Positions 17,574-38,873 of a stretch of DNA of 64,000 bases are shown here, one piece after another. The position numbers and the translations under genes are program-made. This DNA is from Anaerolineae bacterium (GTDB lineage: Bacteria > Chloroflexota > Anaerolineae > Aggregatilineales > Phototrophicaceae). The notes under the pieces are model-generated. The model had not been told where the DNA came from. It made no database searches and saw nothing but the letters and a program-made list of their open reading frames with translations. The stretch spans positions 37,837 through 101,836 of the forward strand of contig JAEURA010000254.1 in NCBI GenBank assembly GCA_016789005.1, written 5' to 3'. Every line of letters begins with the position of its first letter. Positions within the stretch are counted from its first letter, which is position 1.

Positions 17574-17690
17574 GCTCGACTCGTCCTTGGTGGGAATACC
17601 AGGCTGCACTTGTCCGCCGAATTATAGCCGGGATCAGCGACGCCCGGAACGTCAAGCAGGTGATCCAGCACAGCGGCGATGATGTGCACC

Positions 17691-20675: not shown

Positions 20676-21776
20676 TCAATCGCCGAGGTTGATCCCCAGG
20701 TTGCGCGCCGTCTCGATCCAGGGATGATCCAGCGGCACGGTCTTGCGCTTGCCGACGACCTCTTCCAGCGGCACTGGCTCGGTCGAATCGCCGCGCGCCG
20801 CAACCATGACGCCAAAAATGCCCTCATTGATGTAGCGAGCGCACGCCGCCCCCAACCGAGTCGCAAGCAGGCGGTCGGCTGGCGACGGAATACCGCCCCG
20901 CTGAACGTGACCCAGGATCGTCACGCGCGACTCCAAACCGGTCAGCCCTTCTAACTGCTGTGTGAGCTTCTGAGTGCTGTTCAGGCGCTCCGCTTCCAGC
21001 GCTTCCAGTTCCGCTTTGACTTCCTTTCCCTTGCCGTTCTTGCTGGCAGCCACGATTCGCTCGTGCAGCTCCTGCGGCACCGCCCCTTCCGAGACGGCGA
21101 CAATGCTGAAGCCCTTGCCATCGCGCACCCGCTGGCGGATCGAGGTCGCCACCTGCTCGGCGCTGTAGGGGATCTCAGGAATCAGGATGACATCAGCCCC
21201 GCCGGCGATTCCCGCGCCCAACGCCAACCAACCGGCGTTGTGTCCCATCACTTCGACCACAATGATGCGGTGATGGCTGTGCGCAGTGCTGTGCAGGCGG
21301 TCGATTGCCTCGGTGGCGATGGTCAGCGCCGTGTCATAGCCGAAGGTGATATCGGTCATCGCCACGTCGTTGTCGATAGTCTTCGGCAGCGTGATGATAT
21401 TCAGGCCCTGTTTCATCAGGTGATATGCGTTCTTCGCCGTGCCGCCGCCGCCCAGGCAGACCAGCGCGTCCAGATGATGGTTGTGATAGGTCTCTACCAT
21501 CACGTCGGTCATGTCCATCATCTTGCTGCCGATGGGCATCTTCTGCGGTTTGTCGCGGCTCGTCCCCAGGATTGTCCCGCCAATGGTGAGGATTCCCGAA
21601 AGCGCAGCGCTGTTCAGGGTCACCGTCCGGTTTTCCATCAAGCCCCGAAAACCGTCACGAAAACCGATGATCTGCATCCCATAGGCATTCAGCCCCGCTT
21701 TGCCCACCCCGCGAATCGCTGCGTTCAAGCCAGGACTATCGCCGCCCGCCGTCAAGATTCCTATGTACTGGGTCAT
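20676..21776 (-). CDS. pfkA: 6-phosphofructokinase (PfkA family)
   Basis: [43 protein letters not shown]. Confidence 0.9.
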
Positions 21777-21880
21777 GATCGTACTCTCTTCGTTATTCGC
21801 CTGCATTGATGATAACACTTTGCCGGCTCCCGCCGACACAAGACGCCAGGCAGGCGCAAATTGAACAGAGCCGGCACACC

Positions 21881-23658: not shown

Positions 23659-23916
23659 TTACACTGATTCAACTATAAGCCTGAAGGCGGCTGGAGAAGG
23701 AATTTCCCCTCGGATTTGGGGGATGACGCAAGCGTGCAACGCAAGGGCGAGGACCACCTCGGCGTATCTATTGCCCGAAAACCGAAGATGCATATAATTG
23801 AGATAACGTTAACATGTCGGCGCGCTCTGCATTGTGCGCAGATCAGGAGGTGACGCAGACTTCAACTGGCAGTGATGGTGAAAATTTGCCATTGTGGCAT
23901 CAAGCTGGAGGAAAAC

Positions 23917-25584
23917 GTGAAACGTTCAACGTGTTTGAGCCTCTTAGCCCTTCTCCTCGTCCTGGCGCTCGGTGTTAGCATCGTCGCCGCGCAGGACACC
24001 TTCATGGGTAAAACTGCCGAAGAACTCTTTCCGGGTGCAGCCGACGATCAGGAACGCGCCTCTGCCATGGCTGCCCTTCTCGCTGCCAATCTGCCCGACG
24101 CCACCAGCCGCTTCGCCGGACAAACTCTGACGGTCTCAGTTCAGCAGGCGGGCGCACGCGGCGGCATCTCTGGTCCCTACTACTTCTGGCGTGAAGCCTT
24201 CCAGGCGGCAACCGGCGCAACCCTCGAAATCGTCGAAATTCCGCAAGCCCAATACTATTCAACGACCTCGGCGGACTTCCTGACGAGCCAGAACAGCTAC
24301 GACGTGATGAACATCGGCGCGTGGTTCCTTGCCGACTATGTGGTGAACGGTTGGGTACAGCCTATCGACGCCTTCTTTGAACAAGAAGGTTTCCCGACCT
24401 GGGAGCGCGACGCTGTCTTCCCCTCGCTGGCAAACCTGATGAAATGGGACGGACAGTGGTACGGCGCGCTGAACGACGGCGACGCCCAGATGCTCTACTA
24501 CCGCAAGGATATCCTCACCGACCCAACATGGCAGGAAGCCTTCAAGGCGGAAACCGGCATGGACATGCCTGTTCCGCCAACCACCTGGCAGGAACTCCTG
24601 GCGGTGACCCGCTTCTTCAACGGCAAAGACTGGAACGCCGATGGCGATCCTGATGATGGCATCAGCCTGCACCTACGCACCGGCGGTCAGGGCATGTTCC
24701 ACTTCATGTCCCTATCCGCGCCTTTCGCCATCACGCCCGCTGATGGTGACGACATCGGCAGGATCACCAAGTTCGACAACGTCTATTGGTTCGACCCGGA
24801 CGATCTGACGCCCTTGATCAACCAGCCAGGTCACGTCAAGGCGCTGGAATTCCTGAAGGAATTGGCAGCGACTGGCTCGACGGCGCAGTTCGGTTGGGAA
24901 CTCGCCGAAGCGTGGGCGAACTTCCTGAATGGCAATGCGATCGCCACGTTTTCCTGGGGCGATGTCGGCTCCCTGGCGGAGGACCCCAGCCGGTCGGTGA
25001 TTCAGGGCAAGCTCGGCGGCGCGCGCATCCCCTGCTCTGAAGTGTGGTACGACCGCGAGGCGGGCGCTTTCGTGGAAGACGCCGAAAACCCCAACTGCGT
25101 CGGCAATACGACAGGCGGCTCGTGGTATCCGATCATGTCGGCATTTACCGATACGCCGGAACTTGCCTACTACTTTATGGCGATGCAGGCTTCGCAGCCG
25201 ATCAACTTCTGGAACGTCTACTACGGCTGGACCGGCGTTGACCCCGGCGCGACCTATGACGTGTTCCCGCCCACCGGCACGGCGAGCGTCGAAGATTACG
25301 TCAGTGCAGGATACAACGCCGACGATGCGCTCGAATACATCACCGGTTACGGTGACAATTTCTTCAGCCACCCGATCTATCAGACTTATCTGCGCATCCC
25401 CGGCACGGAGACGATGTGGACGATCCTGGATACTCGTCTGGGGCAAGCCATGATCGATGAACTGCCGCCGCAGGAAGCTCTGGATCTCGTCGCCCAGGAA
25501 TGGGACCAGGTCAACAACGACCTTGGACGGGCTGAACAGCTTAGCGTCTACCAGGCGGGCATCGGCTACACGCCAGGCGGATAA
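23917..25584 (+). CDS. Sugar ABC transporter substrate-binding protein
   Basis: GGAGG RBS with GTG start, signal peptide, LYYRKD motif; followed by two permeases. Confidence 0.88.
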   Translation: MKRSTCLSLLALLLVLALGVSIVAAQDTFMGKTAEELFPGAADDQERASAMAALLAANLPDATSRFAGQTLTVSVQQAGARGGISGPYYFWREAFQAATGATLEIVEIPQAQYYSTTSADFLTSQNSYDVMNIGAWFLADYVVNGWVQPIDAFFEQEGFPTWERDAVFPSLANLMKWDGQWYGALNDGDAQMLYYRKDILTDPTWQEAFKAETGMDMPVPPTTWQELLAVTRFFNGKDWNADGDPDDGISLHLRTGGQGMFHFMSLSAPFAITPADGDDIGRITKFDNVYWFDPDDLTPLINQPGHVKALEFLKELAATGSTAQFGWELAEAWANFLNGNAIATFSWGDVGSLAEDPSRSVIQGKLGGARIPCSEVWYDREAGAFVEDAENPNCVGNTTGGSWYPIMSAFTDTPELAYYFMAMQASQPINFWNVYYGWTGVDPGATYDVFPPTGTASVEDYVSAGYNADDALEYITGYGDNFFSHPIYQTYLRIPGTETMWTILDTRLGQAMIDELPPQEALDLVAQEWDQVNNDLGRAEQLSVYQAGIGYTPGG

Positions 25585-25626
25585 GCGCGGTTTGCCATAT
25601 CTGCTGGCGAAATAGAAATCCTGGAC

Positions 25627-25653
25627 TGGGGAGAGGCGCTTGTCCTCTCCCCA
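25627..25653 (+). terminator. Hairpin after SBP gene (terminator or mRNA-stabilising element)
   Basis: TGGGGAGAGG / CCTCTCCCCA 10-bp stem followed by a T-rich tract. Confidence 0.65.
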
Positions 25654-25689
25654 ATTTCGTTTTGAAAAGTCGTTGATGGGTGAGATGCG

Positions 25690-26562
25690 ATGTACAAGAA
25701 GAATCGTGCCCGCTACTTTTTCCTCTTTCCGGGCGTCATCTGGATTCTGGTCTTCACGATCTTCCCGCTCATTTTTTCGCTGTATCTGAGCTTCACCAAT
25801 GCCAACATGCGAAACTTCACGCGGGCAACCTGGAACTTCGTCGGCTTCGATAACTATGCCTCGATCAGCAGTGATCTGCGCATCGGCGACACAGTCAATG
25901 CCACAATCTTCCTGAGCGCCGGCAGCCTCGTCTCCACTCTGCTACTGGGGACGTTCATGGCTTGGCTGTTCAACCATGACATTCCGGGTCTGCGCATCTT
26001 CCGGTCGATTCTGACGATGCCGTTGTTCGCCGCGCCAATCGCCCTGGGCTTCATGGGGTTAATCCTGTTCAACGAGACCAGTGGTTCCATCAACACCATC
26101 ATCCGAGGTCTGGGAGGCGGGGGCGTGCGCTGGATGACCGATCCCTGGTCGGCGCGGACCGCAGTCCTCATCCTGGATACCTGGCAGTGGACGCCATTCG
26201 TCTTCGTCATCATCCTGGCAGCGATGCAGTCCATCCCGGAGGAGTTATACGAAGCTGCCCGACTCGATACCGGTTCCGGTTGGATCATGTTCCGCCGCAT
26301 CACCTTTCCGCTGATCGCGCCGGCGATGGGAACAGTTGCCCTGCTCCGCCTCGTCGAAACGTTCAAAATTCTGGATATTCCCCTCTCCATGCTCGGCGGG
26401 GGACCAGGGGCGGCGACCCAAACCTACTCATACTACGTGTATCTCACCGGTCTCAGGAGCTTCGACATGGGTTACGCCTCGTCGCTGGCATACATTCTCG
26501 TAATCGTGTCGATTATCATCAGCAGCATTTACTTCTGGCGCGTGCGCGCCCGTTTCGAATAG
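25690..26562 (+). CDS. Carbohydrate ABC permease (MalF-like)
   Basis: WQWTPF and EAA motif IPEELYEAARLD. Confidence 0.92.
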   Translation: MYKKNRARYFFLFPGVIWILVFTIFPLIFSLYLSFTNANMRNFTRATWNFVGFDNYASISSDLRIGDTVNATIFLSAGSLVSTLLLGTFMAWLFNHDIPGLRIFRSILTMPLFAAPIALGFMGLILFNETSGSINTIIRGLGGGGVRWMTDPWSARTAVLILDTWQWTPFVFVIILAAMQSIPEELYEAARLDTGSGWIMFRRITFPLIAPAMGTVALLRLVETFKILDIPLSMLGGGPGAATQTYSYYVYLTGLRSFDMGYASSLAYILVIVSIIISSIYFWRVRARFE

Positions 26563-26581
26563 AGCCGAAGGAGCCGGTTGA

Positions 26582-27472
26582 ATGGCTACTACGAACAAGG
26601 AAGCCGCCTTGCGTCCATCACACGTCACTTCGATCGGACAATCGCGGCTGACGCGCATCTTTATCTGGGCAGCGGTGATTGCAGCGGTGATCTGGGTCCT
26701 CTATCCATTCATCTGGGCGGTCATCACCTCTTTCAAAACCCAGCGAGAGGCGCTGGAACCGACCATCATTCCGTTCCTTCAGTTCCAACCGAGCCTGGAG
26801 AACTGGTCGGCAGAACTCGGCTTGGGCGCGCGTGAGACAACGCTGGCACTCGGCAACAGCATCGCCATCGCTGTTGGTGCAACTATCGTGGCGACGGTCC
26901 TGGGCACACTGACCGGCTACGCGCTGGCACGCTTCCGCTTCGGCATCGGCAACCGCAACATCGTGTCGTGGGTTCTGTCTCAGCGTTTTCTTCCTCCTGT
27001 TGCCACGCTGATCCCCTTCTTCCTGGTCCTTCAGCGGCTTCAGATGATTGACACGGTTCCTGGGTTGATCGTCGTCAATGCCACGTTCACGCTGCCCTTC
27101 GCTATCCTGATCATGCGTGATTTCTTCGCCGACTTCCCGGAGGAAATCGAGGAAGCCGCACTGGTCGATGGCGCAAACCCTCTACAAATCTTCGTGCGGG
27201 TTGCGCTGCCTCTGGCGACCCCTGCCATCACGGCGGCGGCTATCATCTGCTTCGCCTTCGCCTGGAACGAGTATCTTTTCGCCAGTGTCATGGCTCCCAA
27301 GGATGCCAAACCGTACACCTTCCTGGTCGCCAGCACCAGCACCGTCCGAGGCGTGCATTTCGGTTATCTGGCGACGCGCATGTTGATCGCCATTACGCTT
27401 CCGGTCGTCCTGTCCCTTTTCGTGCAGCGCTACATCGTGCGTGGGCTGTCTTTGGGCGCCGTCAAGGGTTGA
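26582..27472 (+). CDS. Carbohydrate ABC permease (MalG-like)
   Basis: EIEEAALVDGA, AWNEYLF, GLSLGAVKG. Confidence 0.92.
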   Translation: MATTNKEAALRPSHVTSIGQSRLTRIFIWAAVIAAVIWVLYPFIWAVITSFKTQREALEPTIIPFLQFQPSLENWSAELGLGARETTLALGNSIAIAVGATIVATVLGTLTGYALARFRFGIGNRNIVSWVLSQRFLPPVATLIPFFLVLQRLQMIDTVPGLIVVNATFTLPFAILIMRDFFADFPEEIEEAALVDGANPLQIFVRVALPLATPAITAAAIICFAFAWNEYLFASVMAPKDAKPYTFLVASTSTVRGVHFGYLATRMLIAITLPVVLSLFVQRYIVRGLSLGAVKG

Positions 27473-27577
27473 AAACCGGACGCCACCGTGTGGGGCATGG
27501 GCGAAAGATTCGATCTTCACCCGAACTGAGGGATAATATGCTCATGCATCAAGACATCCGTTCCCCGGAGAGACTCC

Positions 27578-29224
27578 ATGACTGCGCTCAGTAGTTCGCC
27601 CATCTGGAACCGTTTGCAGGAACATCATCAGGCGATGCGCGCCGTCCACATGCGCGAACTCTTCGCACAGGATCCGCAGCGCTTTGAGCACTTCTCGCTT
27701 CGCTATGGGGATATGCTCTTCGACTATTCCAAAAACCGCATCACCGCCGAAACGCTGACTCTGCTGCTCGAGCTGGCGCGTGAAGCCGGCTTGCCTGCCC
27801 GCATCGAAGCCATGTTCTCAGGGTCAAAGATCAACGTTACCGAGAACCGCGCCGTGCTGCATGTCGCCCTGCGCAACCGAAGCAGCACCCCCATCCTGGT
27901 CGATGGCGTCGATGTCATGCCGGAAGTCAACCGTGTCCTGGGTAAGATGCGCACCTTCAGCGAAGCGGTGCGTTCCGGGTCATGGCGCGGCTACACCGGC
28001 AAGCCGATCACCGACGTGGTGAATATCGGCATCGGCGGTTCTGACCTGGGACCGAAGATGGTCACGCTGGCGCTGGCGCACTATGCCAAGCCCGATCTGC
28101 ACATGCACTTCGTCTCCAACGTCGATGGCACGGACATCGCCGAAGTCCTGAAGCGGGTCAGCCCCGAAACGACGCTCTTCCTCGTCGCCTCCAAGACCTT
28201 CACGACGCAGGAGACGATGACCAACGCCCACAGCGCGCGCCGCTGGTTCCTGGGCGCCGCCCACGACGAGGCGGCAGTCGCCAAACACTTCGCCGCCCTT
28301 TCCACCAATACCGAAAAGGTCAGAGCCTTCGGCATTGATCCGCAGAACATGTTCGAATTCTGGGATTGGGTCGGCGGACGCTATTCCCTCTGGTCGGCAA
28401 TCGGGCTGTCGATTGCGCTGGCGGTCGGCATGGACAACTTCGAAGCGCTGCTCAGCGGCGCGCACCGTGTCGATCAGCATTTTCGGCAGGCTCCCCTCGA
28501 TCAGAACATCCCGGTCATCATGGCGCTGCTGGGCATCTGGTACAACAATTTCTTCGGCGCGGAGACTGTCGCCATCCTCCCCTATGACCAGTATCTCTCA
28601 CGCTTTCCCGCCTATTTCCAGCAGGGCGATATGGAGAGCAACGGGAAAAGCGTCACGCTGACCGGCGAGCGCGTCGACTACAGCACTGGACCGGTGATCT
28701 GGGGCGAATCGGGGACGAATGGGCAGCACGCCTTCTACCAGCTCATCCATCAGGGCACCAAGCTCATCCCGTGTGACTTCCTCGCTCCGGCGCAAACGCT
28801 CAACCCGCTGGGTGACCATCATCCAATCCTGCTGGCGAATTTCTTCGCCCAGACCGAGGCGTTAATGAAGGGCAAGACGCCCGATGAAGCACGCGCCGAG
28901 CTGATCGCCGCCGGCAACCCGAATCCCCCTGAGCGCCTTGTCGCGGCGAAGACTTTCGAGGGCAACAAGCCTTCGAACTCCATCCTGTTCGAACGGCTGA
29001 CCCCACAGACGCTCGGCGCGCTCATCGCTCTTTACGAACACAAAATCTTCACCCAGGGGATGATCTGGCGGATCAATTCCTTCGACCAGTGGGGTGTCGA
29101 ACTCGGCAAACAGCTCGCCAAAGCCATCGAACCGGAACTCAAAGGCGAGATTCCGGTGACCAGCCACGATTCCTCTACCAACGGGCTGATCAACGCTTAC
29201 AAACGGATGCGTGATGTCCGGTAA
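27578..29224 (+). CDS. pgi: Glucose-6-phosphate isomerase
   Basis: [49 protein letters not shown]. Confidence 0.98.
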
Positions 29225-29254
29225 GTGGACAGCGCGCGGAGCTCAGGCATAGTC

Positions 29255-29968
29255 ATGCTTTACGTCAGCATCGCCCTGATCATTTTCGCCGCCATCCTCA
29301 TCCAGAGCATCGCCGGGTTCGGCGTTGCTCTGGTTGCCATGCCCTTCCTGACCAGCCTGATCGCGCCGGTCGAAGCCAGCACCCTGATGGCGATCACCGC
29401 CGTGCCGCTCCAGATCATCATCCTCCGGCGCTACTGGCACGCGCTGGAAGCGCGTTCCCTCTGGCGTCTGATCCTCGGCGCGGTGGCTGGCATCCCGGTC
29501 GGCGTACTGGCAATCGCCCGGATGGACGAACAGGTCATCCTGTTCATCCTGGGCATCGTCCTGATCGTCTATTCGCTTTACAGTCTGGCGCGCTTCCGCC
29601 TGCCCCCCGTCGAGTCGCCTCGCTGGGGATTCGTATTTGGCTTGGCATCAGGGCTGCTGAGCGGGGCGTTCAATACGGGAGGTCCCCCGCTCGTCGTCTA
29701 TGGGACCGCTCGCGAATGGCGTCCCGACGTCTTCCGCGCCAACCTCCAGCTGCTGCTGATGGTCAACAGCCTCGTCGTCATCATCGCCCATCTCGTCGCC
29801 GGTCACATGACCGAGGCGGTGCTCAGCTACTACGTCGTCACGCTGCCAGTCGTATTCATCGGCACGGCGCTGGGTTTTCGCATCAGCAGTCGCGTCAACG
29901 AGGCGGTATTCCGCCGCGTGGTCCTGGTGCTGCTCCTGTTGATCGGCATACGCCTGCTGTTTCCGTGA
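29255..29968 (+). CDS. TauE/SafE family sulfite/sulfonate exporter
   Basis: IAGFGVAL, GLLSGAFNTGGPPLV, about 7-8 TM helices. Confidence 0.85.
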   Translation: MLYVSIALIIFAAILIQSIAGFGVALVAMPFLTSLIAPVEASTLMAITAVPLQIIILRRYWHALEARSLWRLILGAVAGIPVGVLAIARMDEQVILFILGIVLIVYSLYSLARFRLPPVESPRWGFVFGLASGLLSGAFNTGGPPLVVYGTAREWRPDVFRANLQLLLMVNSLVVIIAHLVAGHMTEAVLSYYVVTLPVVFIGTALGFRISSRVNEAVFRRVVLVLLLLIGIRLLFP

Positions 29969-29988: not shown

Positions 29989-31395
29989 TCAGGCGAACTG
30001 CGGCAGATACTCGGCGAACTCTGCCAGCAGATCATCCAGCATAGCGCGCGCGACGGCGATGTCGGTCACCATTGGGTCGAGCAGCAGTGCTTGCAGCGCC
30101 AGGGAGCGGTCCCCTTTCACCGCTGCTTCGACGACGATCTCGGTGCGGTGCAGCTCACGGCGGCAGAGTTCGGCAATTGCCGGAGGCAGCGGCGGAAAAC
30201 TCAACCCCTGTATGCCCATTGCCGAGACTACACCAGGCACTTCGATGATGGCATCGTTGGGAAGATTGGGGATCAAGCCGCCGTTGTTGGGGATATTGAG
30301 CTGGTGGCTGTAATAGTCGGTATCCCAGTGAAGCGCCTCGATAATCTCAGGGATCGGCTCCTCAAGGATGGCGAACCGTGACAGATTCGCCAGTTCTTCC
30401 ACCGCCATTTCGCCGTTGACGATGGACCGCGCCAGCGCCCAGCGCTCCGCGCGCCGCTTCCGGTTCCCATCCCAGCTCTGCAATTTCAGGTCATACTTCA
30501 CCCAGGGCTGCGTGACCGGATCATGCGTATAGGCGATGTACTCACACATGTGGCTGTCGCCCGCCGTCGGCATCATGCCGAAGATCTGGAACATGTCGCG
30601 GGTGAGCGGTTCGAACTCGGCGTATTTCTCGCTGAACCAGCGTTCACGCAGCAGCGGATAAAGGTCCTCCCCCGTATGGCGGTCCGTGATGCTGGTGACC
30701 CACGAGAAGTGATTGATGCCGGCAGCCTTAATGTTGAGGTGTTCAAGCCCTGCCAGCGCCACCGGGATGAACCGGGGCATGTTCGAGGCGTCGGTATGCA
30801 CGTGGAAGTGCGCCGGCACTGCCAAACTCCAGCGGTCAGCAAGGACGTATGCCGCCATCGCGTATCCCCACAACAGTTGGTGGCACAACCCCAGCACCTT
30901 GATGCGTGTGTACTTGTGGACGGCATAGCTCAGGCGGATCAGCGGATTGGTGACGTTGAGATACCAGGCATCTGGGCACAGCCTTTCCATGTCACGGGCA
31001 ATATCCAGGATGACCGGCAGGTTGCGCGCTGTGTGCGAGAACGCCCCTGGACCGCCGTTTTCGGCATAAGGCTGCCGCACGCCATGGCGCAGCGGAATCT
31101 GCCAGTCCATCTCCCAGACCGTTTCGCGAGGTCCGACCTGAATGGACACGATCACGAAATTTGCGCCGGGCAGGACTTCTTCCCGGCGGGTGGAACTGGT
31201 GATCGTCATCTGTCCGCCCCACGCCTGGTTCATCTTCTCTGCCAGGCGGGTCATCAACGCCAATCCCTCTTCGTTGATGTCCACCAGTGCCAGTTCCGTG
31301 CCGCGCAAACGCGGATGGCGAATGATCCGCGCCAGCGCTCCCAAACCGAAAATTGCGCTGCCCGCGCCAATGATGACGATCTTTGGTGGCTTCAT
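29989..31395 (-). CDS. Glycoside hydrolase family 4 (NAD+/Mn2+-dependent, alpha-galactosidase-like)
   Basis: IIGAGSA, ENGGPG, LNVTNP, GLCH, AGINHF. Confidence 0.92.
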   Translation of the reverse strand: MKPPKIVIIGAGSAIFGLGALARIIRHPRLRGTELALVDINEEGLALMTRLAEKMNQAWGGQMTITSSTRREEVLPGANFVIVSIQVGPRETVWEMDWQIPLRHGVRQPYAENGGPGAFSHTARNLPVILDIARDMERLCPDAWYLNVTNPLIRLSYAVHKYTRIKVLGLCHQLLWGYAMAAYVLADRWSLAVPAHFHVHTDASNMPRFIPVALAGLEHLNIKAAGINHFSWVTSITDRHTGEDLYPLLRERWFSEKYAEFEPLTRDMFQIFGMMPTAGDSHMCEYIAYTHDPVTQPWVKYDLKLQSWDGNRKRRAERWALARSIVNGEMAVEELANLSRFAILEEPIPEIIEALHWDTDYYSHQLNIPNNGGLIPNLPNDAIIEVPGVVSAMGIQGLSFPPLPPAIAELCRRELHRTEIVVEAAVKGDRSLALQALLLDPMVTDIAVARAMLDDLLAEFAEYLPQFA

Positions 31396-31468
31396 AGTCT
31401 TTCGCGGTTCTCCTCAGCTATCGGGCGGTCACATCGGTATTCCGCCCATCGATTCTCTGCTTCAGGGC

Positions 31469-32509
31469 TTAAGGCTTGATATAGCGGGTCAGCGCATCAA
31501 ACTGAGCGTCGCGATGGGCAGCGGCAGCCGCCGGCGCATCAGCAGCGCTCAGCGAATGGTAGACGATGCCGTGTACTGCGTGGGCGACAGCAGCCGGGTC
31601 TTCCCTGCCGGGATAAGTGACGTTGCGCCCAACCATCACACCGCGCACATTCGAACGTGCCTTCACGCCGGACGCGAAGGAGGCGTACATCATGCTGGGA
31701 TCTTCCTCGGAAGGTCCCCCCAGAAGGATGATCGGCAGCGTCGTCGCCTGGGCTACACGGTCAAACCCCTCACAATACGGCAGCTTGAGCCAGGTGTACC
31801 GTGAAGAATCGCCAAAGGAAGCGCACACGCCAACCAGCTTGATCAGTTCCTCCATCGTGTTTTTCAGGACGTACCTGCCATCGGCTTTTTCGGTGCGAAG
31901 CGGCTCGACGAAGGACGGCAGATGATGCCGATTGAGATCGGTCACGGCGCGCGCGCAGTAATCCACCGTGTCAAGCGTCCGCTCATCGCTCGGATCAAAG
32001 CGCAGCAGCATCTTGCCGCCGTCCAACCGCTGTTCAGCAATGGCTTCCGCGCTGTATGCGCCAAAACGATCATCGATCTCGCCGACGACGCCTGCGACAC
32101 CGCCCCGCTGCATACACCCGATGAGGACCCGACCATCCAGAAACGAGGGTCCCCCACCCTGCTGCACCAGATAATCGACGATCAGGAGTTCGTCGATCAT
32201 GTCGGGCGTGCTCATGAAGCCGTCAAATTCGGTTGCCAGCAGCACGCGCAGAATTCGCCCAAGGTACTGCTGGCGGTCGCCCATCGCGAACGGCTGTCCG
32301 CCGATGTTGGTCACCCCTCGCCCTGGATGATCGGCGGCGAGAATCGTCAGCTTGCCGCGCGGCGCAAGTTGCGGGCGCTGTTTGCGCGACTGCGCCTGTC
32401 GGGTGATGATCGCCGGATCGTCCACCCGCACCCCGGTGATTCGGTCAAAGATGTAATCGGGGAAGAATGCCTTCAGGTCGAAGTGATACGGTTTTGCACC
32501 TTTTTTCAT
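31469..32509 (-). CDS. Class I aldolase-like TIM barrel (Cgl0159/DeoC-LacD superfamily)
   Basis: LAADHPGRG, GCMQRGG, DGGKMLLR, WLKLPY, LLGGP, VGRN; AGGAG RBS before ATG 32509. Confidence 0.75.
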   Translation of the reverse strand: MKKGAKPYHFDLKAFFPDYIFDRITGVRVDDPAIITRQAQSRKQRPQLAPRGKLTILAADHPGRGVTNIGGQPFAMGDRQQYLGRILRVLLATEFDGFMSTPDMIDELLIVDYLVQQGGGPSFLDGRVLIGCMQRGGVAGVVGEIDDRFGAYSAEAIAEQRLDGGKMLLRFDPSDERTLDTVDYCARAVTDLNRHHLPSFVEPLRTEKADGRYVLKNTMEELIKLVGVCASFGDSSRYTWLKLPYCEGFDRVAQATTLPIILLGGPSEEDPSMMYASFASGVKARSNVRGVMVGRNVTYPGREDPAAVAHAVHGIVYHSLSAADAPAAAAAHRDAQFDALTRYIKP

Positions 32510-32588
32510 GAACGTCTCTCCTGTTGAGCCGCCGGATCGGGCAGCCCTCGTTGTGGTGCAGTCGGAAACGCCAAATGACACACAGTCA

Positions 32589-33797
32589 TCAGAACAGCTT
32601 CTTAGGAATCGAACGAGGCGGCAAACGGACCAGAGGCGGCGGCGTCTCGCCGATGAGCGGCGCGGCATAGCTGATGAATTCGGACGTCACCATCGTGCCA
32701 GCCTCGTTCATGTAGGCGCGCGGCAGCCGTTTCTCCCGGTTGAAGACCTGCTCCAGCGGGATCGTGCCCGTGCGCACCAGGTATGGCGCGCTGGAAAGGC
32801 GCTCCAGCGTCACCATGAAATCCGTGCGGTCCTGCGCCAGATGCCGAACCGCCTCGACACCAACCTGCCAGGCTTCGCTCACGTCGCTCTCGCTCAGGCA
32901 GGCGCTCAAGGCGCGTCCGATCAAACCGGGGCGCAGCGTTCGTGCCTGCAGGCTGAGGCGTTCGCGCACCCGCCGGGCAAGGTACGCCGAGACGCCAGCG
33001 CCCAGCGTGAAGATCGGGCGTCCCATGCTGTCCACGGCGACGTTCGCCTCCTGTCCGATGGGCACACCTACCGCGTCGCGCAATCCCTCGGCGATGACGA
33101 CGAAGACGCGCCCCAGACACGAGTAGACCGCGCTCACCGCCTCTAGAAAGCGATCTTCCTCAAACGGGATTTCCGGCACGTAGACCAGATGCGGGGCATC
33201 CTCCGGTTCATGCCTTAACAGCGCCGACGAGGCAGCAAGCCATCCGGCGTCGCGTCCCATGGCTTCAAGGATGCTCACGGAGTCGAAGGTCGCCATTGCC
33301 TCAAGATCGCGCCCGGTGTCGCGCGCTGCCAGCGCCAGAAAACGCGCGGCGCTGCCATAGCCGGGCGAATGATCGGTGCCGGCGATGTCGTTGTCGATGG
33401 TTTTGGGCGCGCCGGCGACCAGCAGGGGATAGCTGAGCGCCTCGGCAGCCTGGGCAATGCGGTGGCAGACGAACATCGACCCGTTGCCGCCGATCTGCAG
33501 GACGAAACGAACGTTGTGCGCCCGGAGCGCCGCGAACAGGCGCTCATAATCCTCATCACGCAGTTTGTGGCGGCTTGCGCCCAGGGCAGCAGCCGGCGTC
33601 CGCGCCAGCGCATTCAGGTCGATTTCACGAGACAGATCGATGAGCGTCTCGCTCAGCACGCCTTCGACGCCATGCCGCGCACCGTAGACGGCGTGGAAAC
33701 AATTGTGGCGCTGAGCTTCGGCAAGCGCGCCGGCAAGGGTCGCATTGATGACCGGCGACGAACCGCCGGACTGCATGATCAGCAGGACGCCGCGCAA
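32589..33797 (-). CDS. Atypical phosphofructokinase-family kinase (Pfp-like scaffold)
   Basis: QSGGSSPVINATL, GGNGSM, PKTIDNDI, EAMGRDAGWL. Confidence 0.88.
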   Translation of the reverse strand: MRGVLLIMQSGGSSPVINATLAGALAEAQRHNCFHAVYGARHGVEGVLSETLIDLSREIDLNALARTPAAALGASRHKLRDEDYERLFAALRAHNVRFVLQIGGNGSMFVCHRIAQAAEALSYPLLVAGAPKTIDNDIAGTDHSPGYGSAARFLALAARDTGRDLEAMATFDSVSILEAMGRDAGWLAASSALLRHEPEDAPHLVYVPEIPFEEDRFLEAVSAVYSCLGRVFVVIAEGLRDAVGVPIGQEANVAVDSMGRPIFTLGAGVSAYLARRVRERLSLQARTLRPGLIGRALSACLSESDVSEAWQVGVEAVRHLAQDRTDFMVTLERLSSAPYLVRTGTIPLEQVFNREKRLPRAYMNEAGTMVTSEFISYAAPLIGETPPPLVRLPPRSIPKKLF

Positions 33798-33855
33798 CCT
33801 GGATACCTCACCCGGAACACATTGAGAGACGATACAGCATTCACCACCTCGCAGA

Positions 33856-34908
33856 TCATTTCATGCCGGTTGTGGCGATACCGCTCGTGATGTAGCGCTG
33901 CAAGAAGGCGAAAATGAAGGTGATCGGCAGCAGCGTCAGGACGGTCATCGCCAGGAGCAGGTCCCACTGGACTTGCAATTCGCCGCCAAACGACGCCAAT
34001 CCCACTTGAAGCGTGAACAGCTCGCTCTTGGAAAGCACAATCTTCGGCCACAAAAAGTCATTCCAGCGCCACATGACCGAAAAGATCGTCAGCACTGCCA
34101 GCGCTGGTCGCGCCAGCGGCAGGATGATTTGCAGGTAGATTCGCCACTCGCTCGCCCCGTCGATACGCGCCGATTCCAGCAGTTCATCCGGGATGGTGAG
34201 CATGTACTGACGCAGCAGGAAGACTCCCGTCGGTGTCGCCGCCGCCGGGATGATGACGCCAGACAGATTGTTGAGCATCCCCATACCCTGAAGGACGAGG
34301 AAGACCGGGATCAGGATGACGGACAGCGGAACGAGCAGCGTGCCGATGGTGGTGACCAACACAGCATCCCGACCAGGAAACTGGTACTTGCTGAGGGCAA
34401 ACGCCGCCATGCTGTTGATCAGCAGCGTGAGCGCAGTCGCCGCGACGGTGACGACGACGCTGTTGCCCAGATACACCCAGAAGTTGAACCGTTCAGTCCC
34501 CAACGTATAGTTTTCGAGTGAAAAATAGATCGTCTCGACGGGCGTGCGCTGATTGATGTTCACACGGATGATCTCCTCTGGCGCGGCAGGATCGACCATC
34601 TGCGCTTCGATGCCGACCCGCCGAACCTGGGCGAGATGCCGTATCGTGCCGTCTTCCAGGGTCACATCGTACAGTGCCAGCGGTTCATCATAGCCGGCAA
34701 CCGTCGCGACCTCCTGCCGATAGGGCATCAGGCGCGGTGGAAAACGAATGAGCTCCGCCTGAGTCTTGAACGACGACATCACCAGCCATATGACGGGACC
34801 AAACATCAGGAACGTCCCAAGCAGCAGGTAGCCGTAGGTCAGCCAGTCGCTCAAAGAGAGGCGCTTCTTACCGCGTGTGTTCGTCAGAAAGGTCAGCACT
34901 GTTCGCAT
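33856..34908 (-). CDS. Carbohydrate ABC permease (MalG-like) with extracytoplasmic insertion
   Basis: ELLESARIDGA, WRWNDFLWP, SGIATTGMK. Confidence 0.92.
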   Translation of the reverse strand: MRTVLTFLTNTRGKKRLSLSDWLTYGYLLLGTFLMFGPVIWLVMSSFKTQAELIRFPPRLMPYRQEVATVAGYDEPLALYDVTLEDGTIRHLAQVRRVGIEAQMVDPAAPEEIIRVNINQRTPVETIYFSLENYTLGTERFNFWVYLGNSVVVTVAATALTLLINSMAAFALSKYQFPGRDAVLVTTIGTLLVPLSVILIPVFLVLQGMGMLNNLSGVIIPAAATPTGVFLLRQYMLTIPDELLESARIDGASEWRIYLQIILPLARPALAVLTIFSVMWRWNDFLWPKIVLSKSELFTLQVGLASFGGELQVQWDLLLAMTVLTLLPITFIFAFLQRYITSGIATTGMK

Positions 34909-34924
34909 GTCGTCGCCTCGCCTC

Positions 34925-35956
34925 CTAGGAGATCTCGCCTCTGCGACCAAGCCGAAGCTGAATCACGGTGAGGATCAGCAGGAAGGCTGCCATCACCAGC
35001 GATGCGGCAGCCGCCAAGCCATATTCTTTCGTCTGGTTGGCAAAACCGGTCGTATAGACGTACTGCACCATATAGGTTGTCGCCGTCCCCGGTCCACCGC
35101 CGGTGAAGTTGAAGACCTGATCGAAGACCTGCACGGCGCGGATGAGCGAGAGCACCAGCACCACGAACAGATTCGGCATCAGCAGCGGCAGAGTGACATT
35201 CCAGAACGACTGCCAGGCAGTCGCCCCATCAATGCCCGCTGCTTCATAGAACTCCGTCGGTATCGCCTGCAAGCCCGCCAGCAGGATCAAGGTGAAGAAG
35301 CCCATCTGCGCCCAGACGCTGATGATGATGACCCAGAACTGCGCCCATTGGGCGTTGAGCAGAAAAGAGATTCGCTCGCCTCCCAGGCTCACCAGAATGG
35401 CGTTCAGTACGCCATCCTGAAGCAGAATCCAGCGCCAGATCAGCGCGACCACGACCGGTGACAGCAGTACCGGGTAGAAGAAGACGCTTCGAAAGAATCC
35501 CCGTCCGCGTATGTTGCGATTCAGCGACAGCGCCGTGATCAACGCCATGAAGACCAGCAGCGCCACCTGCGAAATGACGTAGCCGCCGGTATTGAGCACC
35601 GCTCGCCAGAAGAGGTCTTCCCTGCAAGAGTTCGGACTGAGGAAATCCTCGCAGGTGAACAGCTGATTGAGATTATCCATGCCTACGAAGGGGCGGTTCT
35701 CTGGAAACAACTCGGTGCCGCCGGTGAAGGCATAGTAGAAGTTCAGCAGCATCGGAAAAAGGATGAAGATGCCGAAGACGAGGAGATTAGGCAGAATGAA
35801 GACATACGCCATGCCCCGCACGCCCAGGATATTTTGCAGCGGGCGCATGAGGAGATCGACCAGATCAATGATCAGATGGTAGACCGTCGAAAGCAGCCAG
35901 TTGAAGGGGGACAAAATTCGCTTGATCGCCACCGGATCCTCCAGAAAGGCTGCCAT
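34925..35956 (-). CDS. Carbohydrate ABC permease (MalF-like)
   Basis: WAQMGF, EFYEAAGIDGA, QVFDQV, GGGPG. Confidence 0.92.
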   Translation of the reverse strand: MAAFLEDPVAIKRILSPFNWLLSTVYHLIIDLVDLLMRPLQNILGVRGMAYVFILPNLLVFGIFILFPMLLNFYYAFTGGTELFPENRPFVGMDNLNQLFTCEDFLSPNSCREDLFWRAVLNTGGYVISQVALLVFMALITALSLNRNIRGRGFFRSVFFYPVLLSPVVVALIWRWILLQDGVLNAILVSLGGERISFLLNAQWAQFWVIIISVWAQMGFFTLILLAGLQAIPTEFYEAAGIDGATAWQSFWNVTLPLLMPNLFVVLVLSLIRAVQVFDQVFNFTGGGPGTATTYMVQYVYTTGFANQTKEYGLAAAASLVMAAFLLILTVIQLRLGRRGEIS

Positions 35957-36031
35957 CACGGATAGGTGTACAGCGGACCATCAAGACGGCAAGCTGCGCC
36001 GCAGGGTGTGGAACTCTGTTTCGAAAACAGG

Positions 36032-36062
36032 CAGGGGCATGACGGCATGCGCCATGCCCCTG
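36032..36062 (-). terminator. Hairpin after SBP gene
   Basis: CAGGGGCATG / CATGCCCCTG 10-bp stem. Confidence 0.6.
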
Positions 36063-36073
36063 GGCTGGAATTC

Positions 36074-37363
36074 TTAGCTGGAAGCTGCCGCCGCCAGCGC
36101 ATCATCGACATCCTGCTGGATGCGCGCGACAGCGTCATCCATCGTCAGTTCGCCGGTGATCACCTGCGTCAGACGATCCCGAATGGGATTGTTGATGGCA
36201 AACGCCTGACCGCCGAACTGAAGCTGGTACGCCTGCTCGCTCAGCTTCGGCACTTCGTTGGCGAAAGTGACCAGCGCCGCCTGAGCAGCCGCCGAATCGG
36301 TCTGGAAGTTCAGTTCACCCAGTCCGAGGTGCGCCGGAATGAACAGCGTGCGCTCGGTGAATTCCTTCAATGTATCCACCTGAACCAGGTAGTCCATGAC
36401 GCGCGCCACTTCAGCCGGGTGTTCGGTTTCGGCGAAGGCGACCATCATCGTACCGCCGGGCATGCCAGTGCTGCCGCCAGGACCGGTCGGGTTTGGAACC
36501 GCCTGCCAGTCGAAGGCATCGCCAACATCGCGCACCAGCGCGCCGATCTGCCAGCTGCCCGACATGTACATGACCAGCTGACCGTTCACGAAGAACGGCA
36601 GGCCGGGGCTGTAGGTCCCACCCGCGCCAACCCAGACGTCTGCGGGAGTCAGGCTTTCCTGATGCCAGCGCACCAGCAGGTCCGCCATCGAGCGGAAGCC
36701 TGGTGTATCAATCGTGATACTGCCGTCGTCATTGAACAGCATCGCGCCCTGGCTGAATGCCGGACCGGCAAAGCGGTGACCGCTGCGATCCATCGCGATG
36801 GCATACTGGGTCTCGGTCGCCTCGGCGACAGCCTGAGCAGCCGCGGTCCACTCTTCCCAGGTCACCGCGTCCATGGTGTCGCTCGGCACTTCCACGCCCG
36901 CCTGCTCGAACAGCGTGCGGTTGATGTAGGGACCGGTCACCGTGAACTGATTCGGGAAGCCGAACAGCGCGTCAGCGGGATCATCCGCCGTGCGCAGTGC
37001 CGCCAGGACGGAAGGAGCGAAGCTGGCATCCCAGTAGGCGGCGTCGGCAACGTGGGGGCGCAGATCGAGATAGAATCCCTTATAGGCGTCGAAGTTGGTC
37101 ACGCGCGCCATATCGGGACCTTCGCCGGCTTCCACCTGCAGGGGCAGCTGTTCAAGGATCGACTGATACGCCACCGTGTCGACAATTACCTTGATATCCG
37201 GGTTTTCCGCCTCGAAGCGGTCGAGCAGATCGCGCAGCACCGCGCCTTCGCTGCCGTCGTCATACCAGGTGATGCGTAGTTCGACCGGGGCATCCTGCGC
37301 CGCGACCGAGGTCGCCAGCACGATCAGCGCCAGCAGTGTTACCAGTGTCAGCAGTTTCTTCAC
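36074..37363 (-). CDS. Sugar ABC transporter substrate-binding protein
   Basis: Signal peptide, GEGPDMARV, YINRTLF; directly upstream of two permeases. Confidence 0.9.
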   Translation of the reverse strand: MKKLLTLVTLLALIVLATSVAAQDAPVELRITWYDDGSEGAVLRDLLDRFEAENPDIKVIVDTVAYQSILEQLPLQVEAGEGPDMARVTNFDAYKGFYLDLRPHVADAAYWDASFAPSVLAALRTADDPADALFGFPNQFTVTGPYINRTLFEQAGVEVPSDTMDAVTWEEWTAAAQAVAEATETQYAIAMDRSGHRFAGPAFSQGAMLFNDDGSITIDTPGFRSMADLLVRWHQESLTPADVWVGAGGTYSPGLPFFVNGQLVMYMSGSWQIGALVRDVGDAFDWQAVPNPTGPGGSTGMPGGTMMVAFAETEHPAEVARVMDYLVQVDTLKEFTERTLFIPAHLGLGELNFQTDSAAAQAALVTFANEVPKLSEQAYQLQFGGQAFAINNPIRDRLTQVITGELTMDDAVARIQQDVDDALAAAASS

Positions 37364-37453
37364 GAGTTTCTCCTTGAAGTTTGAATGCCTAAGTATCCTG
37401 AGAGATCGCAGAGGATCGCGTCCTCCCCTTTCAATAAGCAGCCGATATGCCTC

Positions 37454-38782
37454 CTATAACTCTAACACAGGGAGTTCGAGCATCTGCGCCAGCGCCAGCA
37501 GCGCGGGCAGGTGATCGCCATAGGTCAGGGCAATGTGATGTTCTAAGCCCTCAGCAAGAATTGTCCCCAGAACTTCTTGCGCCGGACGCGCGAAACGGAT
37601 CAAGCCAGTTGTCCCGGAAAACGGCTTCTCGCCGCGAATGATTTCGCCGCGACCGAGGACCAACCGCATCTCCCCACCTGCCTCGCTCAGACGCGCCACC
37701 GTGACGGTTCCCGGCTTGAGCATAAAATCCATGAGCAGAGGCAGCCTCCGATTGCTGTGGAGGGTCGCCTTTGGCTGTTCCGCCTTATCCGCCATCGACA
37801 GCGGAGCCAGCCCACAGTGCCATAGCACCAGCGCGTCGCGTGCAGAATCCAGCGACACGATGTCGCTGCCAAACGCCGCTTCACCGCTGGCTTGCGCCAG
37901 GATGACCTGGGTGATCGTCCCATTGACATCCGCCTCGCATGACGCGGGGATGCCGCTGTCTGTCAGCATCGACATGGCGCCACACGCTGCACAGCCCAAC
38001 TCTGTGAAGAATTCGGGCCAGCAGCGCACCGCGCAGCCGTTCAGGGCTTCTTCCCCAGCGATCTTCTCCAGTGCGGCGTAGGTCGCCAGCGTGCCGCGTG
38101 TCGGCGCATCGTCGGTTATCCCCTGCAGACGCCCCTGCATCTCGGTCATCAGCGCATCGACCGCGCCGGCATCGACCGCGCGGGCGTCGGCAAAAACCCG
38201 CTCACGCAGCGGCACCGGCACAACTTCTACACCAAGACGTGCCCGAAGCTCGGCGGCATCGTAACGGCAGGTGTCGAAGCCTGTGGGATGTTCGCCGATC
38301 ACCCCAATCCGGGCAGACGACAGCGCACGACGAATGCGATTCGCCCGCACCAGCGCATCGAGTTGGGCGATCACGGCTGGATCGGATGGATCGGCATAGG
38401 CGGTGTGATAGCGCAGCCCGGCGCGGCGCAGAGCGTGCGCGCCCAGGTTGATTCCACAGAGGGAATTCAAACGAAGTCGCCCGCCGGTGTGTGGTTCAGG
38501 CAGCGCCCACAGCAACAGAGGCACATCGATCTGTTCGGCAATGGCGCGCACCATCGTGCTGTCGGCAAACGTCGCTTGCAGGACGACAACAGCATCGATC
38601 TCCAGCTCAGCAAGCTGATGCCCGCAGCGAATCGCCGCGTCGGCATCCGTCACCGGATCAGCGCCGCCGACCAACCGAAAACCGTGCGACTCCAGGCTGG
38701 TGCGCGCCGCAGCGATCATCTGCTCTGCATAGGGAACATCAAATGTTGTGCGCAGCAGTGCAGCAAATCCAACTGAAAACAT
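37454..38782 (-). CDS. L-fucose/L-arabinose isomerase family protein
   Basis: LNSLCG, RCWPEFF, CEADV, WHCG, HHIALTYG. Confidence 0.85.
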   Translation of the reverse strand: MFSVGFAALLRTTFDVPYAEQMIAAARTSLESHGFRLVGGADPVTDADAAIRCGHQLAELEIDAVVVLQATFADSTMVRAIAEQIDVPLLLWALPEPHTGGRLRLNSLCGINLGAHALRRAGLRYHTAYADPSDPAVIAQLDALVRANRIRRALSSARIGVIGEHPTGFDTCRYDAAELRARLGVEVVPVPLRERVFADARAVDAGAVDALMTEMQGRLQGITDDAPTRGTLATYAALEKIAGEEALNGCAVRCWPEFFTELGCAACGAMSMLTDSGIPASCEADVNGTITQVILAQASGEAAFGSDIVSLDSARDALVLWHCGLAPLSMADKAEQPKATLHSNRRLPLLMDFMLKPGTVTVARLSEAGGEMRLVLGRGEIIRGEKPFSGTTGLIRFARPAQEVLGTILAEGLEHHIALTYGDHLPALLALAQMLELPVLEL

Positions 38783-38873
38783 AAGTCATCCACAAAATCA
38801 ATCGGACACTCATTATGCCGTACCAAGCGGCACTTCGCAAAATCCTTAAAGGTGATAAAGCCGACGAAAGCGG

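Follow-up and report, generated by a model that had tools for sequence, protein, structure and literature searches.

Which sugar is taken up and dismantled by the seven-gene operon located between positions 29989 and 38782 of a 64,000-nucleotide stretch of an Anaerolineae genome (contig JAEURA010000254.1, the whole stretch being termed the window), and by what enzymes? A first-pass annotation of the window had proposed a new Embden-Meyerhof-Parnas (EMP)-type variant acting on a sulfosugar or another 6-substituted sugar glycoside, and comparative genomics supports the proposal and points more narrowly to a sulfosugar, by virtue of a transaldolase orthologue and sulfolactate-linked genes in related loci, an exclusive swap in one slot of the operon and the loss of 6-phosphate ligands in its kinase. 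The operon is here read as a sulfo-EMP route for sulfoquinovose (SQ), a plant sulfosugar of high abundance, in an Anaerolineae bacterium related to Candidatus Flexifilum, a prediction to which a probability of about three in four is assigned. It is built on features which were observed directly, namely the gene content, the orthology to sulfo-transaldolase (sulfo-TAL) loci, the mutually exclusive exchange of kinase and aldolase with transaldolase, the intact catalytic residues and the altered 6-phosphate site of the kinase.

All seven genes lie on the minus strand and run from 38782 down to 29989, separated by gaps of 58-114 bp or overlapping, and the order given in the first-pass annotation agrees with their Pfam and NCBIfam identities:

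37454..38782, minus strand: candidate SqvD/SftI-type sulfoquinovose isomerase of the L-fucose isomerase superfamily, 442 amino acids (aa), PF02952, first gene of the operon
36074..37363, minus strand: solute-binding protein (SBP) of a CUT1-type ATP-binding cassette (ABC) importer, 429 aa with a signal peptide, PF01547 and PF13416
34925..35959, minus strand: ABC permease 1, PF00528
33856..34950 (likely start 34908), minus strand: ABC permease 2, PF00528
32589..33797, minus strand: phosphofructokinase (PFK)-family kinase, 402 aa, predicted sulfofructose 1-kinase, PF00365 (160 bits) and PRK14072 (413 bits)
31469..32509, minus strand: Cgl0159-like class I aldolase, 346 aa, predicted sulfofructose-1-phosphate aldolase, PF22649 (244 bits)
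29989..31395, minus strand: NAD+/Mn2+-type glycosidase of glycoside hydrolase family 4 (GH4), 468 aa, candidate sulfoquinovosidase, PF02056 (159 bits) and PF11975 (143 bits), last gene of the operon

Neither a regulator nor an aldehyde dehydrogenase is found in the cluster, and the canonical pfkA (20676-21839; PRK03202, 394 bits against a cut-off of 253) and pgi (27578-29224) stand apart from it, all of which had been recognized at first sight.

The isomerase has a single NCBIfam match, to the sulfoquinovose isomerase SftI (NF048012; E 1.7e-91, 307 bits, almost full length), and its Pfam family, PF02952, is that of the SqvD/SftI-type SQ isomerases, which the sulfo-EMP2 pathway uses together with a PF00365 kinase (PMC9594981, PMC10665668). 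No match to the isomerase was detected in the Protein Data Bank (PDB). Its relatives number in the thousands and are nearly all from Chloroflexota, the closest loci being those of an Anaerolineae metagenome-assembled genome (94% identity) and of Candidatus Flexifilum affinis (76%).

What such isomerases travel with was examined in an isomerase scan with one genome per species, which gave 557 relatives; the 80 best loci, which come without exception from Anaerolineae or unclassified Chloroflexota, were kept and compared by protein-by-protein tblastn and by de novo clustering of open reading frames (ORFs). Their common layout consists of isomerase, SBP, two permeases, a variable slot, sometimes an esterase of the DLH/AXE1 type, and then GH4, with a ROK-type regulator ahead of the isomerase in 48 loci. 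The backbone of the window operon (isomerase, SBP, permeases and GH4), which recurs in at least 80 species-level Anaerolineae genomes, is 59-80% identical to the orthologues of one such locus, L001, the isomerase accounting for the 59%, the SBP for 68%, permease 1 for 74%, GH4 for 76% and permease 2 for 80%. In most loci the variable slot is filled by a 221-aa gene of the TAL/FSA family, whose L001 product is 55% identical to the sulfofructose transaldolase of Bacillus megaterium (PDB 8bc3; E 3.7e-76, 259 bits, the best ordinary transaldolase reaching 161 bits). Since sulfo-TAL clusters have been reported for Chloroflexi (PMC7491151, PMC9594981), this identity implies that the transaldolase-type loci are the clusters described in the literature.

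In about ten species plus the window, the same slot is occupied by a kinase and a PF22649 aldolase instead. Among 52 species-level loci with at least 9 kb of sequence downstream of the isomerase, 37 carry the transaldolase, nine the kinase and aldolase, six neither and none both; L090 and L004, two loci from public assemblies, add further examples. In a maximum-likelihood isomerase tree, loci of the kinase/aldolase type branch in several places within those of the transaldolase type, which requires six switches under parsimony, at least two of them forced by well-supported branches. The simplest reading is that a kinase and aldolase cassette of single origin has repeatedly displaced the transaldolase within one orthologous operon. 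Exchange of the two modules within such an operon argues that they share one ketose substrate, sulfofructose, which each of them would split between C3 and C4.

The kinase shares PF00365 with the sulfo-EMP2 kinase SqiK, a likeness at the level of the Pfam family, and the statement in the first-pass annotation that sulfo-EMP2 employs a PfkA-family kinase agrees with the literature (PMC9594981). It scores above the cut-off of the pyrophosphate (PPi)-dependent PFK hidden Markov model PRK14072 (413 bits against 273), and the solved proteins most similar to it are the PPi-PFKs 3k2q and 3hno (E 1.6e-63). Twelve cluster-linked kinases (11 from Anaerolineae and one from the Candidatus Chlorohelix locus L006) were aligned with Escherichia coli PfkA, whose numbering is used here, with the pfkA product of the window and with 3k2q. 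The catalytic and sugar-binding residues R72, T125, D127, R171 and E222 are kept in the window kinase, as are two of the four ligands for the 6-phosphate of fructose-6-phosphate (R243 and R252), and the other two are lost: in all twelve kinases R162 is replaced by Asp, Ser or His and H249 by Leu, Asn or Thr, the window having Ser162 and Leu249, whereas the pfkA product of the window keeps both R162 and H249. The donor motif reads GGNGS (N103, G104) and is accompanied by K124, in comparison with GGDGS and G124 in the ATP type and GGGDS and K124 in the PPi type, which 3k2q exemplifies with GGGDS, K162 and Y249; from the residue set of PPi-PFKs (Asp104, Lys124 and the 6-phosphate ligands at 162 and 249), K124 alone is present. 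The motif thus fits neither type, and either ATP or PPi may be the phosphoryl donor. The 11 Anaerolineae kinases form a single clade with an SH-aLRT support of 99%.

The aldolase frame as originally listed (31469-32668) is too long; because the homologues measure 345-348 aa, the true start is probably Met54 (32509), which also removes an apparent overlap with the kinase gene. The sole solved relative retrieved by phmmer is PDB 3fok, the Cgl0159 protein of Corynebacterium glutamicum, which was deposited as uncharacterised (E 3e-51, 33% identity, TM-score 0.76/0.88). An AlphaFold model computed from a 14-sequence alignment (pLDDT 80.8, pTM 0.85) folds as a TIM barrel, for which Foldseek returned in order 3fok, an archaeal class Ia fructose-bisphosphate (FBP) aldolase, ADH synthase, LacD, LsrF and the sulfohexulose-1-phosphate aldolase 8tnf, the matches to LacD and 8tnf (E ~1e-8 to 1e-9) being likenesses at the fold level. 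D60, K166, E202 and K242 are invariant in the 14 sequences and fall on the predicted strands beta-1, beta-4, beta-5 and beta-6, an arrangement which, in the model, is that of the Schiff-base aldolases producing dihydroxyacetone phosphate (DHAP) and assigns the protein to the class I fold group. The protein has no PF01791 match, and YihT was absent from the phmmer results against the PDB; membership of the YihT family was rejected, as hhalign against E. coli YihT gave a probability of 1.5%. A literature search for Cgl0159 retrieved no function for PF22649, and published surveys list sulfofructose-1-phosphate aldolases from PF01791 and PF01116 only and place the sulfo-EMP routes in Proteobacteria, Actinobacteria and Firmicutes (PMC10665668). 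The aldolase gene stands beside the kinase gene in at least ten species and, in locus L088, beside genes for an aldehyde:ferredoxin oxidoreductase (AOR) and SuyAB-like proteins.

Stand-alone pairs of the same two families also occur among housekeeping genes in four loci of another Chloroflexota genus, g77 (L092-L095; for example L093, 9478-11816), where a PF22649 aldolase accompanies a PRK14072-type PFK. They are 49-50% identical to the cluster proteins, their kinases keep R162 and carry the motif GGNDS, and no class II FBP aldolase is present in the genomes of this genus. Such pairs may represent a glycolytic PPi-PFK/FBP aldolase couple unrecognised so far, which would be the first functional hint for PF22649, and they are possibly the stock from which the sulfo-cassette was recruited.

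The remainder of the genome was searched for the parts of other routes. Its PF00365 genes number six, one of them being pfkA, and another contig, C134, encodes a class I FBP aldolase of the FbaB type (646 bits against a cut-off of 327). Class II aldolases of PF01116, the family of the sulfo-EMP2 aldolase SqiA, are missing genome-wide, the positive controls of the search having matched; PF16161 (DUF4867, SqvB) has no match in this genome, nor in any control genome. No small FSA/TalC-type transaldolase resembling the cluster type was found in the genome; TalAB-type genes are present. On contig C328 (10302-12248), a transaldolase and a PGI-like region are joined in a 959-aa open frame, which is similar to the bifunctional transaldolase/phosphoglucose isomerase family.

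The following pathway is proposed. SQ or sulfoquinovosyl glycerol would be imported by the binding-protein-dependent ABC system, and SQ would be released by the NAD+/Mn2+-dependent GH4 glycosidase, which is the least certain step. The SqvD/SftI-type isomerase would convert SQ into sulfofructose, which the PFK-family kinase is predicted to phosphorylate at C1 at the expense of ATP or PPi, and the PF22649 aldolase would split the resulting sulfofructose-1-phosphate, via a Schiff base on Lys242, into DHAP and sulfolactaldehyde. Reduction or oxidation of the latter would fall to an enzyme whose gene lies elsewhere, and the C3-sulfonate would leave the cell through an adjacent TauE exporter. In evolutionary terms, a single-origin cassette of kinase and aldolase would have taken the place of the sulfofructose transaldolase in the sulfo-TAL operon that is common among Anaerolineae.

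The GH4 enzyme looks active, a prediction based on the invariance of its NAD+ motif, of the metal ligands Cys171 and His229 and of the core residues. Across 57 sequences the GAGS NAD+ motif (G10-A11-x-S13), N150, C171-H172 and N228-H229 are all invariant; the motif and the Cys and His metal ligands, with the two Pfam domains, place the protein in GH4. GH4 enzymes, like those of GH188, proceed by oxidation at C3 followed by elimination, and they accept C6-anionic sugars such as 6-phosphoglucosides and uronides. The protein is 76-97% identical to the GH4 of related loci, in which it occurs in eight of the nine kinase/aldolase loci and in 20 of the 37 transaldolase loci, and four residues specific to its clade, W176, Y234, W253 and R312, are candidates from the alignment for sulfonate binding. 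The sulfoquinovosidase role of this clade is plausible and is the weakest step of the model; whether GH4 is the sulfoquinovosidase of the pathway is judged to be an even call.

The first-pass annotation had further stated that NAD-dependent sulfoquinovosidases exist, which is right (PMC10755693), but those known belong to GH188 and not to GH4; altogether, the known sulfoquinovosidases comprise GH31 and GH188 only (PMC10755693, PMC12780224, PMC13436972). The window GH4 belongs to a family other than GH188. Two further candidates for this step were considered and set aside. GH31 proteins encoded in the window (15414-17609) and in L001, L033 and L046 were rejected as classical (GH31_13, YihQ-type) sulfoquinovosidases, given that the alignment with E. 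coli YihQ shows R301 kept but both W304 and Y508 replaced by Phe, and YihQ ranks only about 45th among the solved relatives of the window GH31. Gfo/Idh/MocA proteins of related loci were not supported as members of GH188, as their match to SqgA (8qc2; E 8.5e-7) is far below those to many other oxidoreductases. The window GH31 gene itself (minus strand), flanked by a URO-D-like gene and an MgsA gene, is 12 kb away from the operon, and its product is 61% identical to the GH31 co-transcribed with TauE in the transaldolase-type loci L001 and L003. The YicI-like type of GH31 could be a relative of the SqgH clade, assigned to subfamily 3 in CAZy (PMC12780224).

As for uptake, the SBP is 68-96% identical to the binding proteins of related loci of both the transaldolase and the kinase/aldolase type, and its predicted ligand is sulfoquinovose or sulfoquinovosyl glycerol. 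Among solved structures it displays no similarity to the SQ-glycerol binding protein SmoF, the best match being Lmo0181 (1e-17) and none being close. A second ABC system in the same genome (contig C287, 10112-16093), with a binding protein 52% and permeases 53% and 63% identical to the cluster types, adjoins a Gfo/Idh/MocA gene whose product is 55% identical to one encoded divergently upstream of the isomerase in nine related loci.

Three further features accompany the operon, the first of which was absent from the first-pass annotation:

29225..29968 (start possibly 29255), plus strand: TauE/SafE-family anion exporter, convergent with the operon, PF01925 (124 bits)
36032..36062, minus strand: strong stem-loop of 13 pairs (9 G-C) directly 3' of the binding-protein gene, from a scan for terminator-like elements
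38812..38840, minus strand: promoter-like site upstream of the isomerase gene, 9/12 matches in a consensus scan, weak evidence by itself

The stop codons of the TauE and GH4 genes are 20 bp apart, and at the other end an M1 peptidase gene lies upstream of the operon. The window TauE is 54% identical to that of L001, 14 related loci have a TauE gene no more than 10 kb from the isomerase gene, in varying arrangements, and the characterised sulfo-TAL cluster likewise includes TauE-type exporters (PMC7491151); TauE is thus the probable exporter of the C3-sulfonate end product. The stem-loop is possibly an internal attenuator or a stabiliser of the mRNA. On the plus strand, 23872-29968 forms one co-oriented string converging on the operon, composed of a 570-aa binding protein, two permeases, pgi and TauE, and the adjacency of pgi and TauE is kept only in the two closest relatives, L007 and L008.

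A number of points weigh against the SQ route. Its support consists throughout of gene neighbourhood and residue patterns; the isomerase, with 307 bits, falls far under the 700-bit equivalog cut-off of SftI; and an Asp at the position of R162 in some of the kinases is not an obvious sulfonate ligand. No sulfolactaldehyde dehydrogenase or reductase and no regulator is encoded in the window, and the best YihU relative of the genome (contig C317) scores higher as a tartronate-semialdehyde reductase than as a sulfolactaldehyde reductase. A classical sulfoquinovosidase is not present, for the GH31 proteins of the window and related loci are devoid of the YihQ residues W304 and Y508. TauE belongs to a broad family of anion exporters and is located here downstream of pgi, on the strand opposite to the operon. 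Finally, three genomes of the same genus are without GH4, and G031, the one also searched for the aldolase, is without the aldolase too, which indicates that the trait is accessory.

The pathway and the substrate class could be as proposed while GH4 is not the sulfoquinovosidase but cuts the glycosides that accompany sulfolipid head groups, such as the alpha-galactosyl glycerols of thylakoid galactolipids, alpha-glucosides or uronides, with SQ entering free or through another enzyme. The nearest NCBIfam model to the GH4 is an alpha-galactosidase subfamily (289 bits, under the cut-off), its best full-length solved relative is the alpha-galacturonidase LplD, with which it has the C-H motif following the Mn-binding Cys in common (the single solved 6-phospho-beta-glucosidase in the alignment reads C-N), nine transaldolase loci lack any glycosidase, and no paper linking GH4 to SQ was found in the literature searched. 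Against this division of labour, GH4 is the best-conserved protein of the backbone and the only glycosidase in 20 loci (eight kinase/aldolase and 12 transaldolase). It is also negatively associated with the YicI-like GH31, one locus having both and 27 and seven having one only (Fisher p 0.004, uncorrected for phylogeny), and, among 400 sampled genomes of the class, 12 of the 17 GH4 orthologues of at least 64% identity have aldolase, transaldolase, SuyB-like, AOR or isomerase genes within 1.5-kb flanks, whereas the paralogue group of 50-57% identity has none. Taken together with the known readiness of the family to accept C6-anionic sugars, these patterns leave the division of labour unlikely, albeit a reading of some weight.

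The same enzyme logic might instead serve a different 6-substituted or rare sugar (sulfofucose, another sulfohexose, or a 6-deoxy or 6-carboxy hexose), in which case the end product need not be SQ-derived sulfolactaldehyde. The sub-threshold score of the isomerase, the lack of an SQ-specific sulfoquinovosidase signature, the resemblance of GH4 to alpha-galactosidases and the existence of a sulfofucose route with a sulfohexulose-1-phosphate aldolase (PDB 8tnf; bioRxiv 10.1101/2023.08.01.551581) are compatible with such a substrate, which is nonetheless held to be improbable: the interchangeable partner of the cassette is the 55%-identical orthologue of a sulfofructose-specific transaldolase, the SuyAB-like, AOR, aldehyde dehydrogenase and TauE neighbours indicate a C3-sulfonate product, and SQ far exceeds the other candidate substrates in abundance (PMC12890257). 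Still more remote is an ordinary PFK and FBP aldolase pair inside a sugar-uptake operon, feeding a common hexose to glycolysis, although the kinase passes the PPi-PFK cut-off and the stand-alone g77 pairs lie among housekeeping genes in a genus without class II FBP aldolase. The cluster kinases have lost R162 and H249, the former being kept in those very pairs; the genome possesses a separate pfkA and FbaB-type aldolase; the cassette is swapped one-for-one with a sulfofructose transaldolase; and the ABC importer would deliver an unphosphorylated sugar, for which the operon encodes no hexokinase step. The SQ-type sulfo-EMP route accordingly remains the preferred reading of the operon.

The surroundings of the related loci are rich in sulfonate-linked genes. 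A SuyB-like split gene of the altronate-dehydratase type, which has the architecture of the sulfolactate sulfo-lyase SuyB, is found in 13 loci, including the kinase/aldolase loci L018 and L019; aldehyde dehydrogenases occur in 11, AORs in 10 (for example L054 14384-16132, L046 19949-21334 and L088 17349-19070), LarA-like racemases in seven, PF03601 exporters in six and SsuD-like monooxygenases in four. A tungsten/molybdenum AOR acting as sulfolactaldehyde oxidase is not described in the literature examined. LarA-like proteins, which belong to the nickel-pincer racemase family (L025 18988-20268, L030 487-1761, and once in the present genome, contig C145, 3556-4899), could be sulfolactate racemases feeding a stereospecific SuyAB. 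In 13 related loci a conserved protein of about 900 aa (p912), with no match in Pfam or the PDB, is encoded either immediately upstream of the isomerase or behind GH4 (copies at L001 7129-9867, L035 6153-8846 and, in the present genome, contig C15, 17033-19819), and one possibility is that it is a sulfolipid-processing enzyme. Homologues of the esterase, of this protein and of the LarA-like and Gfo/Idh/MocA genes are scattered over other contigs of the fragmented assembly.

Three further loci deserve description. In L088 (GCA_034717495.1, JAYELL010000091.1, 6913-21044), a Chloroflexota locus of another architecture, whose kinase and aldolase are 53% and 64% identical to those of the window, the order is DeoR regulator, NagB-like protein, PFK-family kinase, PF22649 aldolase, Gfo/Idh/MocA protein, ABC system, second NagB-like protein, AOR, ThiS-like protein, PF03601 exporter, SAF-domain protein (SuyA fold) and SuyB-like gene; because this locus has no FucI-type isomerase, its NagB-like proteins might be an alternative sulfosugar isomerase. 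The Zymomonas plasmid pZZM402 has a hybrid, sulfo-EMP-like cluster, whose isomerase is 39.5% identical to that of the window; its other genes encode a mutarotase, a PfkB kinase, a class II aldolase and an SSADH-type dehydrogenase, and one is annotated as D-cysteine desulfhydrase, a family to which the cysteate sulfo-lyase CuyA belongs. The plasmid of the phototrophic Chloroflexota member Candidatus Chlorohelix allophototropha (L006; NZ_CP128401.1, 3425-19274) carries a 36.5%-identical SqvD-like isomerase beside a PRK14072-type PFK, with SSADH, nitrite/sulfite reductase, siroheme synthesis, PGDH-like and threonine-synthase-like genes, and the region may be a complete SQ mineralisation island.

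Only a few enzyme families serve as markers for tracing SQ turnover in metagenomes. If the proposed route is true, surveys based on BLAST against YihT, SqiA, YihQ and SqgA would miss an EMP-type route in Anaerolineae, which are common in activated sludge, sediments and microbial mats; PF22649, an orphan family of structural genomics, would gain its first function, and GH4 would become a candidate third family of sulfoquinovosidases. The repeated swapping of transaldolase against kinase plus aldolase within one orthologous operon constitutes a natural experiment, which bears on how sulfoglycolytic pathways are assembled from glycolytic parts, a question raised before (PMC10665668). A wider proposal is put forward tentatively and with some doubt: that the operon represents a third enzyme set for EMP-type sulfoglycolysis, in which PF22649 would be a third, independently recruited family of sulfofructose-1-phosphate aldolases, joined by a clade of PPi-PFK-like sulfofructose kinases and by GH4 as a third, Mn2+/NAD+-dependent sulfoquinovosidase family, the set being widespread in Anaerolineae and its cassette freely exchangeable with the transaldolase. 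Searches of the literature on sulfoquinovose in Anaerolineae, and on sulfofructose in combination with PFK and Chloroflexota, retrieved nothing on the present variant.

In comparison with the known systems, the sulfo-EMP1 pathway of E. coli (YihS, YihV, YihT, YihU, YihQ) follows the same reaction logic and likewise relies on a class I Schiff-base TIM-barrel aldolase of the DhnA/LacD fold group, but its isomerase, kinase and aldolase belong to PF07221, PF00294 and PF01791 rather than to PF02952, PF00365 and PF22649. Cgl0159 (PDB 3fok), the founding member of PF22649, shares its Pfam family with the window aldolase. The sulfo-TAL/sulfo-SFT pathway (SftI/SqvD and SftT/SqvA, PDB 8bc2-8bc4; PMC7491151, PMC9594981) has much of its gene content in common with the operon: the isomerase, SBP, permeases, GH4 and TauE of the window are orthologous to those of the Anaerolineae transaldolase loci, with kinase and aldolase replacing the transaldolase; C1-C3 would thus leave as DHAP at the cost of one phosphoryl donor, whereas in sulfo-TAL they are transferred to glyceraldehyde-3-phosphate. 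At the glycosidase step, the GH188 enzyme SqgA (PMC10755693) resembles the window GH4 in its Rossmann-type NAD+-binding N-terminal domain and in its occurrence in SQ clusters without a classical GH31 sulfoquinovosidase, yet SqgA is metal-independent, whereas GH4 is another CAZy family with a Cys/His Mn2+ site.

Also close is the sulfo-EMP2 pathway of Bacillus (Alkalicoccus) urumqiensis (SqvB, SqvD, SqiK, SqiA and YihQ; PMC9594981, PMC10665668), which shares with the window operon the predicted intermediates SQ, sulfofructose, sulfofructose-1-phosphate, and DHAP with sulfolactaldehyde, as well as an isomerase of PF02952 and a kinase of the Pfam family PF00365 (gene set after Liu et al. 2021). 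The two differ in the aldolase, which is a class I enzyme of PF22649 here and the class II, metal-dependent SqiA of PF01116 there; in the presence of GH4 instead of a YihQ-type GH31; in uptake by an ABC importer; in the lack of a match to DUF4867 (SqvB), for which the control genomes gave none either; and in the host, which is a member of Firmicutes there and of Chloroflexota here. The chemistry of the proposed route is known; what is new in it is the aldolase family, unreported so far, the separate kinase clade, the host phylum and, as a candidate, the family of sulfoquinovosidases.

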